Below are positions 1,886 through 64,000 of a DNA stretch of 64,000 nt, piece by piece. The position numbers and the translations under genes were made by a program. The stretch comes from an uncultured Bacilli bacterium. GTDB lineage: Bacteria > Bacillota_I > Bacilli_A > RF39 > UBA660. Below the pieces are notes generated by a model, which had not been told where the DNA came from, searched no databases, and was given only the letters and a program-made list of their open reading frames with translations. The stretch's first letter is position 1; each line of letters starts with the position of its first letter. The DNA lies in NCBI GenBank assembly GCA_944358415.1, contig CALVRA010000001.1, positions 33,920-97,919 on the forward strand, in the 5' to 3' direction.

Positions 1886-3640
1886 TTATGCTTTTTTCTT
1901 TAAAACAATGAATGCAGTAACCGCAACAATTACAGCAACACCACCAATTACAGCTACTAAAATTATACTATCTGATGTTTTTGGGTTAGTTGCTTCATCT
2001 TTAATATCTTCTTGATCTTTTAACTCTAAACTATCAATCGCTTTTAAAATGTCTTCAGCATATTGATCAACTTCTTTTTGTTCAGTAATGTTTTTATTCC
2101 AATCAACTTTGTTGATTGCATCTTCTACTAAACTAAAGTTTTTGTAGTCGTTTTTATTTAATTTGTTTGCTTTATCAATAGCTTCTTCTACTTTGCTATA
2201 ATCAGCTTTTTTATAAGCTATTGTGACAGTTCCATCTTCATTTGTAGTTACTATTTGGTCTTCATTTACAGTAACTTGATCTAATATTTCTTTAGGGAAT
2301 GTTCCGCCTTCAACGGTTGTTGTAGCACCTGTGTTAGTTGTTGGTATTGTTTGATAAGTACCACCTTTAATTGTTAATTTACCAGAATTTTTAATATTTG
2401 TATTAACTTTGCCAGTTTGGGCTTTACTTGTATCATTGATAGTAATATCTGAGCTATTAGCAATACTAATACCTTTGGTACTGTTAATAGTGTGTCCATT
2501 TAAATCAATGTTAATTTCTTTTCGGCTAATTGAAATGCTACTAGTTTCATTAGTGTCAGCTAATAATTTAACGTTAATGCCTTTAGAATCTAAAGGTACA
2601 CTATTAAGGGCATTTTTTAAATTCGTCCAATATGAATTTGTTGATTCTACATAGACATTAGCATTTTTCATTTCACCTTTTAAATCTAATTGGCCATTTC
2701 CAATTTTAACTCCACCAGTTCCAACAGTTAAAGTTCTTTCTTTAGGAATTACTACTGTAATGCCTTCAGGTATTATTAAAGCACTACTATAGTCAACATC
2801 AATAATTACTTTAGTTCCTTTAACACTATTAGCAATAATTGAACCGTTTGTGTTATTGTGATTAGTTTTAGCAGTTATTTCTCCACTATAAGATTGAACT
2901 GTTCCATTATTATTTCCTGTAGATGTTTTACCAGTAATAGTTGAATCACTAATATTAACTGTTTGCGTAGTTGTTGTACTGTTAAGTCTTTCAGTTCCTA
3001 GAAAATAAAGCCCTGTAATTGTTGAATTTTTAATAGTAATATCTGAATTTTTATTAGCACTAGCACCGCTTCGTGCGAATATGGCATAGTCTTTTTCGGC
3101 AACAACTTTTGTATTATCTACTTTAGCAGTTCCCCAGTTTTGAATAGCACCAGTAAAACCGATTTCTTTGTCCAAAGAGTTTCCCACATGAGTAGAAATA
3201 ACAGTTGAATTTTTAACAGTTAAATTACCATAATGTTCTCCTTCTTCATCTTTACTACTAGTTGCATCATTTTTAATAGTAGCAAAAGCACTTTCAGCTG
3301 TTATGCCATCTACTTCCATTGTGCCTAAGTTTCTAAGGCAAGATGAAGTATTTGATGGACAACTTATTTTACCTTTATTGCTTCCGGTATCGATTATTTT
3401 AACAGTACCTCTATTATCAACAAGATAATCATCAGTTGGTCCTGTTAAGGTATGACCATTTAGGTCAATTGTAAGGCTTTCGCCTTCATTAATGACGTGC
3501 CTTTTTGATAAAGTTACGTCTTCAGTTAGTTTGATTACATTACCACTTTGCATACCATCGAAAGATGTGGCTGCTTTTACGGCAAATGGCAAAGTAATAA
3601 ACAATGCAATAAACCCTAAAGAAAATATTTTCTTTTTCAT
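1886..3640 (-). CDS. large surface protein: N-terminal signal peptide, beta-helix-like Thr/Asn/Gly-rich repeats, helical FIVAR-like module, C-terminal TM anchor
   Basis: Signal peptide. Repeated IDLNGHT(L/I) and ...KNSTI... units. C-terminal hydrophobic helix plus KKKA. Confidence 0.5.
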   Translation of the reverse strand: MKKKIFSLGFIALFITLPFAVKAATSFDGMQSGNVIKLTEDVTLSKRHVINEGESLTIDLNGHTLTGPTDDYLVDNRGTVKIIDTGSNKGKISCPSNTSSCLRNLGTMEVDGITAESAFATIKNDATSSKDEEGEHYGNLTVKNSTVISTHVGNSLDKEIGFTGAIQNWGTAKVDNTKVVAEKDYAIFARSGASANKNSDITIKNSTITGLYFLGTERLNSTTTTQTVNISDSTITGKTSTGNNNGTVQSYSGEITAKTNHNNTNGSIIANSVKGTKVIIDVDYSSALIIPEGITVVIPKERTLTVGTGGVKIGNGQLDLKGEMKNANVYVESTNSYWTNLKNALNSVPLDSKGINVKLLADTNETSSISISRKEINIDLNGHTINSTKGISIANSSDITINDTSKAQTGKVNTNIKNSGKLTIKGGTYQTIPTTNTGATTTVEGGTFPKEILDQVTVNEDQIVTTNEDGTVTIAYKKADYSKVEEAIDKANKLNKNDYKNFSLVEDAINKVDWNKNITEQKEVDQYAEDILKAIDSLELKDQEDIKDEATNPKTSDSIILVAVIGGVAVIVAVTAFIVLKKKA

Positions 3641-15886: not shown

Positions 15887-16798
15887 CTAAATTTTTTTTA
15901 TTTCGGTATTTTGATAATAGTGTTTTAATATTTGATCATATTTATATCCTTCTTTAGCCATGCCATTAGCTCCATATTGACTCATACCAACGCCATGTCC
16001 AAAACCTTTGGTGGTGATGGTTATTTTTTCGTTGTTTTGAGTTATTGTGAAATAATTTGAGCGAAGTGAGAGTTTAGTGGCTAAGTCTCTTCCATTTAAT
16101 TCTTGATTATTTATTTTTAGTTTTTTTATTCTACCAGTTGAGGTTTTTTGGGTTATTTCGATGTTTAATTTTTCATTATAAGGTAGGTTTAATTTTGTAT
16201 AAAAGTCTTTTAGATCAAAGGTATATGTATCATTAAAAACAGGTGAGGCTTCATCCCATTTACTATCAACACTTCTTAGATAAGGTAATTTTGAGACAAA
16301 TACTTCTTCGCTATTTTCGGTTTTGCCGACTGAGGTAGAGAAAAACATGGCATTAACTATTTGATTATTATAAGTTAGATATTCACCGCTTGTTTCTTGA
16401 ATAGCTTTATTTATTTTATTTATTTTTTCTTGATAGTTTTCTTTCCAATTTGTTTTTAACTGTTCATCAGTTAGATATACTTGGTTAGCGGTGGTGTTTA
16501 ATACATCATATTCTTTATCTTTAGTGGCGGTCATTTGATACATGGCATAGCTTCTTGAAGCAACTGCTTGGGCTTTTAGGGCTTCTAGTTCAAATGTGGC
16601 AGGCATTTCACCAGCGACAACTCCTTTTATATATTTTTCAAAAGGGATAGTCATTATTTGATTTGTTTTTTCATCTTTGACTCTAATTATATTATTGGTT
16701 TTATATTTGAATTTTATTTCATCTGTTTGAATGAAAATTTTGGTAAATAAAAAAGGTATTATGACTACTAATAGTGCGGTTATAATAAACTTTTTCAT
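15887..16798 (-). CDS. spoIID: stage II sporulation protein D (lytic transglycosylase)
   Basis: SpoIID/LytB domain motifs: EALKAQAVASRSYA, FFSTSVGKTENS, GHGVGMSQYGA. Confidence 0.85.
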   Translation of the reverse strand: MKKFIITALLVVIIPFLFTKIFIQTDEIKFKYKTNNIIRVKDEKTNQIMTIPFEKYIKGVVAGEMPATFELEALKAQAVASRSYAMYQMTATKDKEYDVLNTTANQVYLTDEQLKTNWKENYQEKINKINKAIQETSGEYLTYNNQIVNAMFFSTSVGKTENSEEVFVSKLPYLRSVDSKWDEASPVFNDTYTFDLKDFYTKLNLPYNEKLNIEITQKTSTGRIKKLKINNQELNGRDLATKLSLRSNYFTITQNNEKITITTKGFGHGVGMSQYGANGMAKEGYKYDQILKHYYQNTEIKKI

Positions 16799-16810
16799 AA
16801 CTTGTCCTTT

Positions 16811-17008
16811 CTATATGAATTTCGTACTTGCGAAGAAATCATAGAAAAAATTTGTGACTAAGTATGATAAAGCCATAGCGACTATTAGATATAATACCCT
16901 TGATGAGTAATATCTATTTTTTTTAAATATGCCAGATATGTTTATGCTTTCTAAAGCCCATAATGTGATGATTACTATTATTATATATATGAAACCTTTT
17001 AGTGCCAT
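16811..17008 (-). CDS. small membrane protein (DUF1146/YwzB-like)
   Basis: 65 aa with two TM helices. Position next to spoIID matches B. subtilis ywzB. Confidence 0.5.
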   Translation of the reverse strand: MALKGFIYIIIVIITLWALESINISGIFKKNRYYSSRVLYLIVAMALSYLVTNFFYDFFASTKFI

Positions 17009-17523
17009 TATTCCCTATAATCGTCAAGCATTTTGATACGTTTTTTATGACGTTCTATATTACTAAAAGGAGTTTTTAGAAATACATCAGTTATGTCTTT
17101 GGCTCTAATTAATGGCATATTTCCATTTATAGCCATGATGTTGGCATCGTTATCTTGTCTTGTGTATTTAGCTTCTTTGATGTTATCTACTTTCGCGCAT
17201 CTTACTTTGCTTATTTTGTTACAGGCGATACTGATTCCAATACCACTGCCACAAATAGCGATTCCTTTTTCAACTTTGCCATCACGAACGGCTTTGCCTA
17301 GTTTGAAACCATATTTTGGATAGTCATGACTGGTTTTATCATCGCAACCATAGTCAATAACAGTGTATCCTTTTTTGGTTAAATATTTTGTTAGTTTTTG
17401 TTTTAAGTCATAACCTCTATGATCACTGGCTATTCCTATCTTATTATCTGGTATGTTTAAGTCTAAGATTGTTTTTTCTTGATAATCATTTTTTACAATA
17501 TCTTTTAATGAAGTTTCTTCCAA
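17008..17523 (-). CDS. rpiB: ribose-5-phosphate isomerase B (RpiB/LacAB family)
   Basis: IGIASDHRGYDLK and GIAICGSGIGISIA motifs. About 27-aa N-terminal extension. Confidence 0.8.
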   Translation of the reverse strand: MEETSLKDIVKNDYQEKTILDLNIPDNKIGIASDHRGYDLKQKLTKYLTKKGYTVIDYGCDDKTSHDYPKYGFKLGKAVRDGKVEKGIAICGSGIGISIACNKISKVRCAKVDNIKEAKYTRQDNDANIMAINGNMPLIRAKDITDVFLKTPFSNIERHKKRIKMLDDYRE

Positions 17524-29053: not shown

Positions 29054-29929
29054 TTACTCCTTTATATTTAATATTTCTAGTATTCTATTTAAATCAGCGG
29101 TGTTTGTAAAGGATATTTCTATTTTTTTATCTTTTATTTTGACTTTGGTATCTAGTTTTTCTCTAAGCATATCTTGGACGTATTTGAATTCTTCGTTTTT
29201 TGGTTTTCTATTTGTTTGATGTTTTTTTGGAATGTTTTCGCTTTTTTCTTCAACATCTCTGACAGTTAAGCCTTTTTCAGTAATGGCATTAGCCATTTTT
29301 ACAATTTCTTCTTTGTCTTCTAGTTTACTTAGAGCTCTAGCGTGACCCATGGTAAGTTTTTGAGTAGATATCATATCTTGAACTTCACCAGGAAGTCTAA
29401 GTAGTCCAAGCATATTAGTGATATGGCTTCTACTTTTACTTACTTTTTTAGCTAGTTCTTCTTGGGTTAGATTTAGTTTTTCAATTAAACTTTTATAAGC
29501 TTTTGCTTCTTCTAAGGCGTTTAAGTTTTCTCTTTGTAAGTTTTCGAGTAAAGCTATTTCAGCCATTTTTTCATCACTTATTTGTCTTATGATTGCCGGT
29601 ATTGTTTTTTTGCCGGCTATTTTACTAGCTCTAAGTCTTCTTTCTCCAGCAATAACGTCATAACCTTTGATGCTTTTTTTTACAATAATTGGTTGGAAAA
29701 CACCATTTTCTTTGATTGAAGAAGCAAGTTCGTTTAAAGCATCTTCATCAAATATTGTTCTAGGTTGATATGGGTTTGGTCTTAATTCATCGACGTTTAA
29801 TTCAATTATTTCTTCATGCTTTGTATCTTCATAGATGTTTTTTTCAAATTCACTGACATTATTGACATTTAAGTTATCTAAATCAAATAATTGTTCTAGG
29901 CCTTTACCTAGGGCTCTTCTATTTTCCAT
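29054..29929 (-). CDS. spo0J: chromosome partitioning protein ParB/Spo0J
   Basis: ParB box GERRLRAS, HTH (LTQEELAKKVSKSRSHITNMLGLLRL). Downstream of parA. Confidence 0.9.
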   Translation of the reverse strand: MENRRALGKGLEQLFDLDNLNVNNVSEFEKNIYEDTKHEEIIELNVDELRPNPYQPRTIFDEDALNELASSIKENGVFQPIIVKKSIKGYDVIAGERRLRASKIAGKKTIPAIIRQISDEKMAEIALLENLQRENLNALEEAKAYKSLIEKLNLTQEELAKKVSKSRSHITNMLGLLRLPGEVQDMISTQKLTMGHARALSKLEDKEEIVKMANAITEKGLTVRDVEEKSENIPKKHQTNRKPKNEEFKYVQDMLREKLDTKVKIKDKKIEISFTNTADLNRILEILNIKE

Positions 29930-30704
29930 TTCTTTTAATCACCTCTTTAGCTAAGTTTATATAGGCTTCAGCTCCTCGACTTTTAGGGTCATAGTTAATT
30001 ATTGGTTTACCATGACTTGGGGCTTCAGATAGTCTAACTAATCTTGGAATGATTGTATCATATACTCTTTCTTTGAAATAACTTTTAATATCTTGAACGA
30101 CTTCTAAGCCTAGATTAGTTCTATTGTCTAACATGGTTAACAATACTCCTTCAATATCTAAGTCAGGGTTTAATGTTTTTTGAGCCAGCATGATTGAGTT
30201 TAATAATTGCATAATCCCTTCTAAGGCGAAGAATTCACACTGAACTGGGATAATTACTGAGTTTGCGGCTGTAAGTGCATTGGTTGTAAGTAAACCTAAA
30301 GAAGGGGGACAGTCGATTATTATATAGTCAAATATTTCTTTTGCACTTTCTAAATTATTTTTTAATTGTTTATTTTTTGAAAATTCAGGGTCTAATCTAC
30401 TTTTTTCAGCTAGTTCTAAGTCAGCTCCAGCTAGTGAGATAGTTGCTGGAATAATATATAGATTTTTGAATTTTGTTTTTTTAATGACTTCTTTTAAGTT
30501 TGCATTTCCAACTAGTAAGTCATATATACTTTTTTTTATATCACCTTTGTCAATTCCTAGGCCTGTTGTACTATTTCCTTGTGGGTCTAAATCTATTAAT
30601 AAAGAACGTTTGCCTAGATAACCTAGGCATGCGGCTAAATTAATACTAGATGTTGTTTTTCCGACTCCACCTTTTTGATTGACAAGTGCAATTATTTTTC
30701 CCAT
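29919..30704 (-). CDS. soj: chromosome partitioning ATPase ParA/Soj
   Basis: Deviant Walker A NQKGGVGKTT. 261 aa. Overlaps the parB start. Confidence 0.9.
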   Translation of the reverse strand: MGKIIALVNQKGGVGKTTSSINLAACLGYLGKRSLLIDLDPQGNSTTGLGIDKGDIKKSIYDLLVGNANLKEVIKKTKFKNLYIIPATISLAGADLELAEKSRLDPEFSKNKQLKNNLESAKEIFDYIIIDCPPSLGLLTTNALTAANSVIIPVQCEFFALEGIMQLLNSIMLAQKTLNPDLDIEGVLLTMLDNRTNLGLEVVQDIKSYFKERVYDTIIPRLVRLSEAPSHGKPIINYDPKSRGAEAYINLAKEVIKRNGK

Positions 30705-45079: not shown

Positions 45080-45300
45080 TAAATAAAAAAACATCCTTAG
45101 GATAAGGACGTTTATGAGCGTGGTACCACCTTAATTCGTAAGATTTTCTTACCTTTGAACATATAACGGTGTTTACCGCTTTAGCTTAAATATCGGCTAA
45201 AGTGCTTAGGAGCCATTTAGAGTAGTCACCTTGTTTATTTCCACCAACCATAAACTCTCTATAAAGTTACCTACTTTTCTTTCCTTCACAGCATTTATGG
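45080..45300 (-). promoter_or_regulatory. T-box riboswitch leader (probable Met specifier AUG)
   Basis: Minus strand reads AATTAAGGTGGTACCACGC (T-box consensus) at 45118-45136, followed by a terminator hairpin plus U-run. Stem I begins with an AGAGAG motif. AAAUGG specifier candidate at 45214-45216. Confidence 0.8.
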
Positions 45301-62224: not shown

Positions 62225-62632
62225 TTACTTATTTCGCTTATTTTTAAAGAAATCTTTTAGCAAATTCCTAGAGTTTTCCACATTTTTAATTTGAATAAGT
62301 TCTGGAGTTTTTAAGTTCGCTTGTTTTTCTTGTTTAGCTGCGTATTTTATACACTTTATTCTAGCTTGCTTTGCGACTTCTATACACATATTACACGGTT
62401 CAAGTGTAACATACAATTCACAGTTATTGAGGTGCCAAGACTTTTTCTTTTTGCATGCTTTTTCAATAGCATTTATTTCAGCATGTTTTGTAATTAGATG
62501 TGTTTTTTCTCGTGTGTTATGACCTTTAGCAATGATTTTGCCGTCTTCTACAATGAGTGCACCTACTGGAACATCATCTGTTTTTAGGCTTTTTTTTGCT
62601 TCTTTTAAAGCTATTTCCATATATTTATCCAT
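62225..62632 (-). CDS. tadA: tRNA-specific adenosine deaminase
   Basis: HAE and PCxxC (EPCNMC) deaminase motifs. Start set at MDKY (AGGTGA RBS), because the longer track ORF would run into the SRP RNA. Confidence 0.9.
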   Translation of the reverse strand: MDKYMEIALKEAKKSLKTDDVPVGALIVEDGKIIAKGHNTREKTHLITKHAEINAIEKACKKKKSWHLNNCELYVTLEPCNMCIEVAKQARIKCIKYAAKQEKQANLKTPELIQIKNVENSRNLLKDFFKNKRNK

Positions 62633-62651
62633 ATTATCACCTATATAAAAA

Positions 62652-62724
62652 GGTACACACATTTAGAGGACCTTAAGGCTGCTATCTTCCGATTCTGACC
62701 TGGTTCAGCCATAAATGTTGTACC
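62652..62724 (-). ncRNA. ffs: small (4.5S-type) signal recognition particle RNA
   Basis: Minus strand reads GGUACAACAUUUAUGGCUGAACCAGGUCAGAAUCGGAAGAUAGCAGCCUUAAGGUCCUCUAAAUGUGUGUACC. Domain IV core ACCAGGUCAG..CGGAAG..AGCAGCC and a closing helix are present. Lies near tadA/dnaX as in Bacillus. Confidence 0.75.
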
Positions 62725-62815
62725 AATAATTATATTATAATAATTAGAGAAAAATGTCTATATTTTTTTATAAGTTTTTATAAGTTTTGTATGGTTTTCC
62801 ACAGTATTTATTTTT

Positions 62816-62841
62816 ACCTATGTTTCACGTGAAACATAGGT
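62816..62841. promoter_or_regulatory. parS site 1 (26-bp perfect palindrome)
   Basis: Core TGTTTCACGTGAAACA at 62821-62836 equals the Firmicute parS consensus TGTTNCACGTGAAACA. Confidence 0.8.
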
Positions 62842-62928
62842 TTAATATCTTACTTTTTTTATACTAAAGCTAAAATGATTTTCTTTTTTTACATTAATCT
62901 AATGTGTATATATTTGATTTTTTATCGC

Positions 62929-62954
62929 AGCAATGTTTCACGTGAAACATTGCT
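62929..62954. promoter_or_regulatory. parS site 2 (26-bp perfect palindrome)
   Basis: Core TGTTTCACGTGAAACA at 62934-62949. Confidence 0.8.
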
Positions 62955-63106
62955 AGTAAAGTTAAATTATATTTATTATTGTTTTAAGTATGAGATTATT
63001 TACTGTTATTATATGTAAATATTAATTGTACTTAAATATTTTTAGTTGTATTTACAATTATCTTTATACTGTTTTGCACATTATCAAATTATATATAATT
63101 TTAAAT

Positions 63107-63138
63107 GATCACCAATGTTTCACGTGAAACATTGGTGA
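63107..63138. promoter_or_regulatory. parS site 3 (32-bp perfect palindrome)
   Basis: Core at 63115-63130. Arms ATCACCAA/TTGGTGAT. Confidence 0.8.
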
Positions 63139-63146
63139 TGTGGATA
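63138..63146 (-). promoter_or_regulatory. consensus DnaA box (TGTGGATAA = TTATCCACA on the minus strand)
   Basis: Perfect 9-mer abutting parS site 3. Confidence 0.35.
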
Positions 63147-63303
63147 ATTAATGTTTTTAATATGAAGTGTATAAAATTTTAATTATACAGGTAAATTAAT
63201 CTAAATTTTGTTTAAAATATTAGATTTTAATTTTAATTATTAACAACATTTTAACAATTTTATTTTTAAAATTTGAAAACTTAATACATTTTAGTATTAT
63301 TTG

Positions 63304-63333
63304 GCATTAATGTTTCACGTGAAACATTAATGC
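63304..63333. promoter_or_regulatory. parS site 4 (30-bp perfect palindrome)
   Basis: Core at 63311-63326. Arms GCATTAA/TTAATGC. Confidence 0.8.
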
Positions 63334-63496
63334 TGTGGAAAAATTATAATTATAGTTTTTAATAAGCAATGCTTTTTATTTAAAAATATTATATGTATTA
63401 ATCTTTATATAAAATATTAGCTTTAAAATTCATTGTAAATTTTTTTATAGTAGTTTTTTTTAGTTGTTAGTTATTAATTATTTATTTATTTATTTA

Positions 63497-63524
63497 TTCT
63501 AATGTTTCACGTGAAACATTAGAA
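63497..63524. promoter_or_regulatory. parS site 5 (28-bp perfect palindrome)
   Basis: Core at 63503-63518. Confidence 0.8.
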
Positions 63525-63598
63525 CTGTGGAAATTTTAAAAATGTTTTTGGAATTTTTAAATTATAAATTTGAATGTATTTACTATATTGTTAGTAGT

Positions 63599-63628
63599 GT
63601 ACCAATGTTTCACGTGAAACATTGGTAC
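63599..63628. promoter_or_regulatory. parS site 6 (30-bp perfect palindrome)
   Basis: Core at 63606-63621. Arms GTACCAA/TTGGTAC. Confidence 0.8.
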
Positions 63629-63732
63629 TAAAAATGTTGTTTTTATATTTTGCACGTAGTAATAATATATAAATTTGAATTAAAAACTTGGACACACATT
63701 TATAAAAAATATATTTTAGTATGGTTATTGTG

Positions 63733-63770
63733 TTTAAAACTAATGTTTCACGTGAAACATTAGTTTTAAA
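63733..63770. promoter_or_regulatory. parS site 7 (38-bp perfect palindrome)
   Basis: Core at 63744-63759. Arms TTTAAAACTAA/TTAGTTTTAAA. Confidence 0.8.
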
Positions 63771-63848
63771 ATATATTGTAATACTATTTTAGTGTCCTAT
63801 TTTTTTATATATATTTAATATAAAAAAGAACGCACTAAACGTTCTTTC

Positions 63849-63870
63849 CAATGTTTCACGTGAAACATTG
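63849..63870. promoter_or_regulatory. parS site 8 (22-bp perfect palindrome)
   Basis: Core at 63852-63867, 3 nt downstream of the gyrA stop codon. Confidence 0.8.
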
Positions 63871-63872
63871 AG

Positions 63873-64000
63873 TTAATTTTCTGATTTTTCTTGTGTTTGT
63901 TCTTGGTTTTCTTCGGATGTTTCTTTATCTAATAAAGCAATACTGCTTACGTTTTGATTATCTTTTAAATTAATTAATCTTACACCTTGAGCAACTCTAC
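63873..64000 (-). CDS. gyrA: DNA gyrase subunit A, C-terminal end (partial, continues beyond the window)
   Basis: Minus-strand translation ..RVAQGVRLINLKDNQNVSSIALLDKETSEENQEQTQEKSEN* resembles the last GyrA beta-pinwheel blade plus an acidic tail. The gene neighbourhood is consistent. Confidence 0.55.
   Translation of the reverse strand, partial: RVAQGVRLINLKDNQNVSSIALLDKETSEENQEQTQEKSEN

Follow-up and report, generated by a model that had tools for sequence, protein, structure and literature searches.

What is the role of eight perfect copies of parS, the target of the chromosome partition protein ParB, that lie within 1.1 kb of noncoding DNA directly downstream of gyrA? The question is posed by a 64,000-nucleotide stretch of DNA from an uncultured Bacilli bacterium of the order RF39 (contig CALVRA010000001.1, positions 33,920 to 97,919; in the following, the window). 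Here the 16-mer TGTTTCACGTGAAACA occurs in eight exact copies spanning positions 62821-63867, between the gyrA stop codon and the gene of the small signal recognition particle (SRP) RNA. The evidence described below makes it very probable that this array is the chromosomal ParB centromere of a small-genome gut bacterium of the order RF39 (Bacilli) near Candidatus Coprosoma, and that it forms a compact ParB loading zone beside the replication origin oriC.

The array and its presumed reader

All eight copies match the parS consensus TGTTNCACGTGAAACA exactly, compared with a mean of 0.05 chance matches to the 16-mer at up to two mismatches in dinucleotide-preserving shuffles of the window. The centre-to-centre distances are, in order, 113, 182, 195, 192, 103, 138 and 108 bp. 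The initial annotation, which had described eight perfect sites in AT-rich noncoding DNA between the gyrA stop and the SRP RNA, gave five of these distances correctly and missed the second and third by one base pair (181 and 196). Its description of the interval itself was borne out by the eight exact matches, by the Rfam assignment of the SRP RNA gene and by a G+C content of 19%, as against 28.4% for the window. The interval contains no credible open reading frame (none longer than 47 aa), and its alignment to a close relative displays abundant indels, which fits noncoding DNA. Helical phasing of the sites was dismissed by inspection, as the spacings of 103-195 bp have no common multiple of ~10.5 bp.

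The same eight-site array was recovered in three metagenome assemblies that are independent of each other (L001, identical to the window; L129, a longer contig of the same strain; and L131), and related arrays were found in L014, L123, L124 and L126, whose contig names suggest long-read assemblies. The array is therefore not an assembly artefact. No further parS was detected at up to three mismatches in the remaining 62.8 kb of the 64-kb window, between dnaA and gyrA or in the 10 kb to the left of dnaA. This search around oriC covered ~93 kb in all of a genome of roughly 1.3-1.5 Mb (complete contigs of relatives measure 1.3-1.5 Mb). Within that range it disposes of a generic repeat, an objection the annotation itself had raised, and likewise of dispersed repeats resembling repetitive extragenic palindromic (REP) or miniature inverted-repeat transposable (MITE) elements.

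The protein presumed to read the array is encoded on the minus strand at a distance of 33 kb, where Pfam confirmed both genes of the soj-spo0J operon proposed as cognate (29054-30704). The ParB/Spo0J protein (291 aa; 29054-29929) matches ParB_N (4e-36) and HTH_ParB (3e-36). The Soj/ParA ATPase (261 aa; 29919-30704), the ParA-type partner of a ParABS system, matches AAA_31 (5.5e-66) and the CbiA/ParA families; its gene overlaps parB by 11 nt. The best solved-structure match of ParB is Bacillus subtilis Spo0J (6sdk, E=5e-60). Its GERRLRAS motif aligns with GERRFRAA of Spo0J and thus conforms to the cytidine triphosphate (CTP) motif GERRxR, and the specificity positions KSR...MGHAR align with KSR...MGHGR. 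In the Caulobacter ParB-parS structure R173 and G201 contact parS, while Noc has Q and R at these positions (PMC7383237). With the Caulobacter numbering mapped by inference, the ParB of the window appears to carry the parS-type R and G.

On the longer contig of the same strain the gene order, read along the minus strand of the window and extended beyond the window's end, is rsmG-mnmG-trmE-...-jag-yidC-rnpA-rpmH, followed by dnaA-dnaN-comK-like-recF-gyrB-gyrA-[array]-ffs-tadA-dnaX-ybaB-recR-holB. DnaA boxes of the consensus TTWTNCACA occur six times in the rpmH-dnaA spacer and four times in the dnaA-dnaN spacer, forming a bipartite oriC of the kind common in Firmicutes. From the dnaA-dnaN cluster to the start of the array the distance is 7.4 kb, which makes the array origin-proximal. 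Since the canonical box clusters flank dnaA 7-9 kb away, the array is a separate locus, and its assignment to oriC itself was rejected.

It is established for chromosomal ParB that a CTP-dependent clamp closes at parS and then slides. At the array, a dimer of the canonical ParB would bind each of the eight perfect 16-bp sites, and CTP-bound ParB would close as a clamp at parS and slide onto adjacent DNA, freeing the site for the next dimer. Because the clamp vacates parS as it slides off, eight close sites within 1.1 kb would act as one redundant, high-flux loading zone. A single ParB complex would then be built over the gyrA/ffs/dnaX region for Soj-driven origin segregation, with SMC loading from the array being probable. 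More tentatively, DnaA bound to adjoining boxes might couple initiation control to this ParB/Soj hub. A putative, unusually large hub for the loading of both ParB and SMC is plausible.

Conservation and turnover of the array

Judged by ParB, DnaX and DnaA homologues, the window belongs with uncultured gut Bacilli near Candidatus Coprosoma intestinipullorum (ParB 81%, DnaA 94% identical). Candidatus Coprosoma corresponds to the Genome Taxonomy Database (GTDB) genus CAG-822 of the family CAG-822 in the order RF39 (PMC8035907). A search for the array in relatives, as the initial annotation had proposed, revealed the layout gyrA-[parS array]-SRP RNA-tadA-dnaX in more than 20 related genomes, whose arrays comprise 3-14 sites. 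The array lies between gyrA and tadA-dnaX in at least 18 species-level genomes labelled as uncultured Bacilli, Tenericutes or Mycoplasma, whose GyrA proteins are 59-84% identical, and the SRP RNA gene follows it in all 12 relatives scanned. Closer relatives, which were found through their DnaX and DnaA homologues, carry eight sites at this locus in L122, nine in L123/L124, eight in L125/L126, six in L127/L128 and 13-14 in Ca. Coprosoma intestinipullorum (L132/L133), with no sites at up to two mismatches elsewhere in their loci of roughly 13-22 kb.

Between L001 and L122 the spacers are 84.2% identical and contain many indels, whereas all 128 of the 128 core bases of the sites are unchanged (P=2.8e-10 at the spacer rate). 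The 16-mers thus evolve under strong purifying selection, which genuine binding sites would be expected to show. A variant site was noted in L078 at position 3028 (stored strand, which is the gyrA-to-tadA orientation), where TGTTTTACGTAAAACA displays a symmetric double change, C6 to T and G11 to A. The palindrome is kept, with ten further palindromic pairs per side, and the parS consensus is lost.

Changes in site number come about through tandem duplication, recombination between sites and homogenisation of duplicates. L130, which encodes the same DnaA protein, has seven sites instead of eight owing to a 113-bp deletion (L130 19753 compared with L129 19754-19882) whose junction falls within a parS copy. 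There, the left-hand flank of one unit directly meets the right-hand flank of the following unit, indicating recombination between two parS copies; at the new junction the palindromic flanks are gone and the extension is 1. In L127/L128 (8520-9132) a 406-bp internal duplication comprises two array units, and both duplicates share the substitutions that distinguish the strains, which points to concerted evolution or gene conversion within the array. Arrays of sister lineages consist either of regular tandem units (55, 63, ~107 or ~125 bp) or of irregularly placed sites with unique spacers. As side observations, L125/L126 (8520-9683) carry an IS110-family transposase just downstream of the array, where it separates tadA from dnaX, and L125 has a second insertion (Transposase_mut, 16262-17488).

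Dense arrays are more widespread than the initial annotation had implied. We scanned 185,579 species genomes for two perfect parS sites 80-110 nt apart; matches are biased to spacings of 96-126 bp, and the resulting array counts are lower bounds. At least 120 stretches of DNA from many phyla contained closely spaced perfect pairs, and among the matches listed at least 18 loci besides the window's own sequence hold six or more sites within 1.2 kb. Examples are L044 with 11 sites at a 55-bp period, L055 (Candidatus Onthocola) and L112 (a metagenome-assembled gammaproteobacterial genome) with nine each, and L043 (Paceibacterota) with eight. Among the matches listed, the pairs adjoin soj-parB in most phyla; the array described here differs in lying apart from parAB, between gyrA and the SRP RNA gene. 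Pairs of the chromosomal consensus were also noted in 24 of 2.9 million IMG/VR contigs (L134-L157), one of which (L155, 6137-6460) holds eight parS at spacings of 38-63 bp; these contigs may be phage-plasmids, origin-adjacent proviruses or misclassified pieces of chromosome.

In chromosomes with clustered parS, such as those of Caulobacter crescentus, Pseudomonas aeruginosa (parS1-4), Corynebacterium glutamicum, Streptomyces and Myxococcus, a handful to about two dozen sites extend over 10-200 kb. With these systems the array shares the 16-bp consensus, the origin-proximal position, several sites that would act together, a canonical ParB with CTP motif and a ParA/Soj partner. In contrast, it is far denser (8 sites in 1.05 kb), all of its sites are perfect and intergenic, and it contains DnaA boxes interleaved with the sites as well as long private palindromes. 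The chromosome of B. subtilis has about ten parS, mostly intragenic and scattered over its origin-proximal fifth, one of them within spo0J. Spo0J is the closest solved relative of the ParB studied here (6sdk), and both organisms share the consensus, the Soj partner and a Noc-like paralogue beside rsmG left of oriC. Unlike in B. subtilis, no site lies in or near parB and all known sites form one intergenic block.

The suggestion that the cluster looks more like a plasmid centromere did not hold. Iterated-repeat centromeres of plasmids likewise consist of tandem protein-binding repeats in noncoding DNA, with binding being predicted in our case, and vary in copy number. However, the array carries the chromosomal consensus, is set among the core genes gyrA, ffs, tadA and dnaX at the same chromosomal place in more than 20 genomes, lies 33 kb from parAB and gave no match when compared by BLAST with 72,556 plasmids.

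The number of parS ranges from 1 to 20-23 per genome, and clustering is common and unexplained (PMC7333895, PMC7022226). Our literature search for parS arrays retrieved only the known clustered systems and yielded no description for parS of this density, the gyrA-ffs position, box-parS units or private palindromes; the key survey by Livny et al. 2007 was outside this comparison. The array thus belongs to the known kind of clustered, origin-proximal parS and is set apart by its density and perfection, fixed position, box-parS units and private palindromes. The last two of these features go beyond the initial annotation, as does the alternation of parS with palindromes resembling Noc sites in sister lineages.

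DnaA boxes and private palindromes around the sites

Four consensus DnaA boxes are clustered in the intergenic DNA of the array (1.2 kb), compared with 0.19 in shuffles, none of 5000 of which reached four. In the direction from gyrA to tadA, a perfect box TTATCCACA (63139-63147, minus strand) ends 7 nt before the 16-mer of site 3. The box TTTTCCACA (63334-63342, minus strand), which fits TTWTNCACA, is found 7 nt before the 16-mer of site 4; it is conserved in L122 and present at the equivalent units of L123, L125 and L127. The box-like ATTTCCACA (63526-63534, minus strand; one mismatch) stands at the same distance of 7 nt from the 16-mer of site 5, where L122 has TTTTCCACA. Two boxes are located on the plus strand: an inverted TTTTCCACA (62795-62803), placed between site 1 and the promoter region of the SRP RNA, and the consensus box TTTTGCACA (63072-63080; L129 position 19623) in the spacer that separates sites 2 and 3. 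The terminal inverted box is kept after the last parS, as ..ACTGTGGAA in L122, L123 and L125 and as ..ATTGTGGAA, which differs by one base, in L127.

Boxes are conserved as a feature of the locus. The arrays of five of six relatives contain 3-6 boxes each (P<=0.0015), and in L122, L123, L125 and L127 a box lies 6-7 nt before two to four of the sites, with varying intervening bases. In the wider clade 14 of 107 sites have a box within 20 nt as compared to 4 expected (P=4e-5; the units are not independent). Clusters of DnaA boxes in B. subtilis hold back initiation and show genetic interactions with spo0J and soj (PMC3245932). Like the boxes described here, the oriC-proximal clusters among them are consensus boxes outside but near oriC with a link to ParB/Soj (PMC3245932). 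The centromere of Caulobacter is bound by DnaA as well, and a DnaA-ParB/Soj link, predicted in our case, is common to both (PMC6399470). Unlike in these two organisms, the boxes of the array are interleaved with parS at a fixed offset of 6-7 nt in repeated box-parS units, and no description of such a composite unit was found in the literature. Taken together, the pattern suggests that the locus probably also binds DnaA and would thereby link origin firing or DnaA titration with Soj/ParB.

These observations raise the possibility that the locus is mainly a replication-initiation control element, in which a DnaA-box cluster is fused to ParB loading sites, and only secondarily a segregation centromere. 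Duplicated within seconds of initiation, it would titrate DnaA and tune DnaA activity at oriC through ParB-stimulated Soj. The enrichment of boxes in the array and in five of six relatives, their fixed offset and orientation beside parS, the distance of only 7.4 kb from oriC and the genetic interactions known from B. subtilis (PMC3245932) all argue for it. However, the array has four consensus boxes as compared to ten in oriC, one relative is devoid of boxes, and the invariant elements are the parS 16-mers rather than the boxes. We consider initiation control as the main function a tentative alternative, which is compatible with a centromere role.

A second feature concerns the surroundings of the sites. 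Each of the eight parS sites is the centre of its own perfect palindrome of 22-38 bp with abrupt ends and no pairing beyond the first mismatch. Site 1 (palindrome 62816-62841, 26 bp; 16-mer 62821-62836), closest to the SRP RNA gene, reads ACCTA-TGTTTCACGTGAAACA-TAGGT and is predicted to form a DNA hairpin of -9.1 kcal/mol (z -6.8). Site 2 also extends over 26 bp (62929-62954; 16-mer 62934-62949). Sites 3 (63108-63139, 32 bp; 16-mer 63116-63131) and 4 (63304-63333, 30 bp; 16-mer 63311-63326) adjoin the DnaA boxes described above, the one at site 3 being perfect. They are followed by site 5 (63497-63524, 28 bp; 16-mer 63503-63518), site 6 (63599-63628, 30 bp; 16-mer 63606-63621) and site 7 (63733-63770, 38 bp; 16-mer 63744-63759), the arms of which are the same in L122. 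Site 8 (63849-63870, 22 bp; 16-mer 63852-63867) lies 2 nt past the gyrA stop; it precedes the terminator of gyrA and hence is transcribed together with that gene.

Extension past the 16-mer averages 6.5 bp per side, compared with 2.2 when arms of different sites were paired (P=5e-5). It is likewise significant in the clade as a whole and, in weaker form, in other phyla. Clade-wide, the first flanking pair (A...T) is invariant, pairs 2-3 are biased and the outer arms are site-specific. Between L001 and L122 we counted four compensatory arm changes as against 0.47 expected (P=1.4e-3), and ten other changes made or broke a pair. The hairpins predicted for the palindromes in DNA range from -6.9 to -14.1 kcal/mol.

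Template switching has been reported to homogenise and expand inverted-repeat arms around the sites of dimeric factors (PMC13100816, PMC8794818). The arms described here are perfect, end abruptly, are specific to each copy and change on both sides, which fits such a process. Most likely, they arose when, in AT-rich DNA free of constraint, replication switched templates between the two arms of a perfect inverted repeat already in place. The resemblance to repeats formed by quasipalindrome correction comprises perfection, abrupt ends, the position around the site of a dimeric protein and copy-specific, co-changing arms. Unlike the described cases, the process is putative in the array, and a parS example was not found in the literature. 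Searches combining parS with cruciforms, quasipalindromes or RF39 also returned nothing relevant to parS.

Alternatively, the extended palindromes could be selected structures, with the DNA forming cruciforms or hairpins or the RNA forming hairpins that serve as terminators or insulators. Such structures might keep gyrA read-through out of the array and the SRP RNA gene, or help ParB loading. The perfection of all eight palindromes, the stability of their predicted hairpins, the compensatory changes and the significant extension across the clade and in other phyla are in line with selection. An RNA-level role found no support. No palindrome is followed by a T tract on the minus (coding) strand, and the terminator scan yielded two weak candidates only, both on the antisense strand. 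Moreover, gyrA possesses a separate terminator hairpin of its own. In the transcribed orientation, the first mismatch was G:T in 30 cases and A:C in 20 (P=0.2), without the strand bias or G:U-type tolerance of an RNA helix, and the missing excess of G:T favours a process at the DNA level. The terminator or RNA-hairpin role was rejected on these grounds. As for DNA structures, perfection with abrupt ends is expected of copying and not of selection on stability, sister arrays persist with extensions of only 1-2 bp, so that long arms are not needed for an array, and extrusion of a cruciform would destroy the duplex parS site, which in part makes a selected cruciform or hairpin less likely. Altogether, selection for structure seems improbable, and a separate function of the arms is less likely than their origin by template switching.

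The flanks of the array contain the following features, all on the minus strand. The 3′ end of gyrA (63873-64000; stop codon 63873-63875) encodes the C-terminus ...RVAQGVRLINLKDNQNVSSIALLDKETSEENQEQTQEKSEN* and runs off the window; the full gene is present on the longer contig. A probable intrinsic terminator of gyrA (63820-63847), read by eye as AAAGAACG-TTTAGTG-CGTTCTTT plus a T run, directly follows site 8. It was not among the results of the terminator consensus scan, and G+C-rich hairpins occupy the same position in L123 and L125. The SRP RNA gene ffs (62637-62734; Rfam RF00169, 58.5 bits) is located immediately downstream of the array. It is followed by a gene for a tadA-like tRNA adenosine deaminase (62225-62632) and by dnaX, ybaB and recR, which form a conserved downstream flank. 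Further away, in the origin region, the small ComK-family gene between dnaN and recF (150 aa; L001 2166-2618) is kept in L122-L133, all of them close relatives. A T-box leader elsewhere in the window (45101-45298, minus strand; Rfam RF00230, 115.7 bits) is unrelated to the array.

A probable centromere and its possible wider role

The least convincing explanation, a selfish or mobile palindromic element of REP or MITE type or a captured plasmid or phage partition site that matches parS by chance, might account for tandem, intergenic, AT-rich repeats whose copy number differs between strains and for the same 16-mer pairs in the 24 IMG/VR contigs, one with eight sites, but it is most improbable given the lack of copies elsewhere in ~93 kb, of transposase or plasmid genes near the array in this genome and of matches in the plasmid collection, a position fixed over order-level divergence, and a 16-mer that is the exact consensus of the ParB type encoded by the genome.

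Several points weigh against the interpretation as a compact centromere with attached DnaA boxes. At the array, we infer the occupancy and spreading of ParB, the loading of SMC and the binding of DnaA from sequence, and further parS sites may lie outside the ~93 kb searched of the 1.3-1.5 Mb genome. The array contains few DnaA boxes, some of them related to each other by duplication, the perfect one at site 3 is not shared by L122, the L089 array has no boxes at all, and TTTTCCAC is one mismatch away from a parS half-site. Regular tandem arrays in L044, L089, L014 and L062 exhibit almost no palindrome extension (1-2 bp). The GC skew of the window gives no clear sign that the minus strand is the leading strand. 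Finally, a second ParB-family protein with Noc-like residues is encoded left of oriC (L129 1-1106).

As to the skew, its cumulative GC value rises on the plus strand, yet the minus strand carries nearly all genes and is the expected leading strand; AT skew tracks the coding strand in the window. GC skew opposes gene strand here and is thus a poor guide to replication direction.

The second ParB-family protein has 565 aa in this strain and 625-690 aa in Ca. Coprosoma (L132 690-2762, L133 885-2762), and its gene adjoins rsmG, the place of noc in B. subtilis. It has the motif GERRFKAS, Noc-type residues (KSQ..ANK..SERHAR) and a long low-complexity C-terminal tail, and scored 295.6 bits on the NCBIfam Noc model, just below the cut-off of 315 bits. 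The Noc-binding site ATTTCCCGGGAAAT was absent at up to two mismatches from the window and from L129-L133. A palindrome resembling it, TTTCCCGGGAAA, is interleaved with parS in the gyrA-tadA arrays of the sister lineages L014, L116, L049, L059 and L061. In L014 (OZ006970.1, 2265-2962) each of six units of ~125 bp has one TTTCCCGGGAAA 56 bp before parS. Palindromes of this type number five in the 8-kb locus of L116 and three each in L049 and L059.

The centromere reading leaves room for a broader and rather speculative idea: the gyrA-ffs spacer of the order RF39 might be a dedicated 'origin organiser', in which composite units for origin-handling proteins are brought together in one short noncoding block beside oriC. 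A unit may consist of parS and a DnaA box at 6-7 nt in this organism, and of parS and a palindrome similar to the Noc-binding site in sister lineages. If so, the loading of ParB, the binding of DnaA and, where it occurs, that of Noc would be coupled physically within a single kilobase. In genomes that have lost much other regulation, this would link the control of initiation to the segregation of origins and possibly to membrane tethering.

Why the number of parS varies when one site suffices, and what drives their clustering, are open questions of ParABS biology (PMC7333895). The clade offers a natural series in which the same locus carries 3-14 perfect sites in regular or irregular arrays, with loss of units between strains and concerted duplicates, so that the sequences themselves record how a centromere array evolves. 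With its eight sites within 1.1 kb, the array also provides a compact natural substrate for the effect of site spacing on the flux and collisions of ParB clamps. The private palindromes point to template switching as a process that remodels the vicinity of palindromic protein-binding sites in intergenic DNA of bacteria. If the units of parS with a DnaA box or with a Noc-type site are functional, the machineries of replication, segregation and nucleoid occlusion would be wired together through DNA sites.

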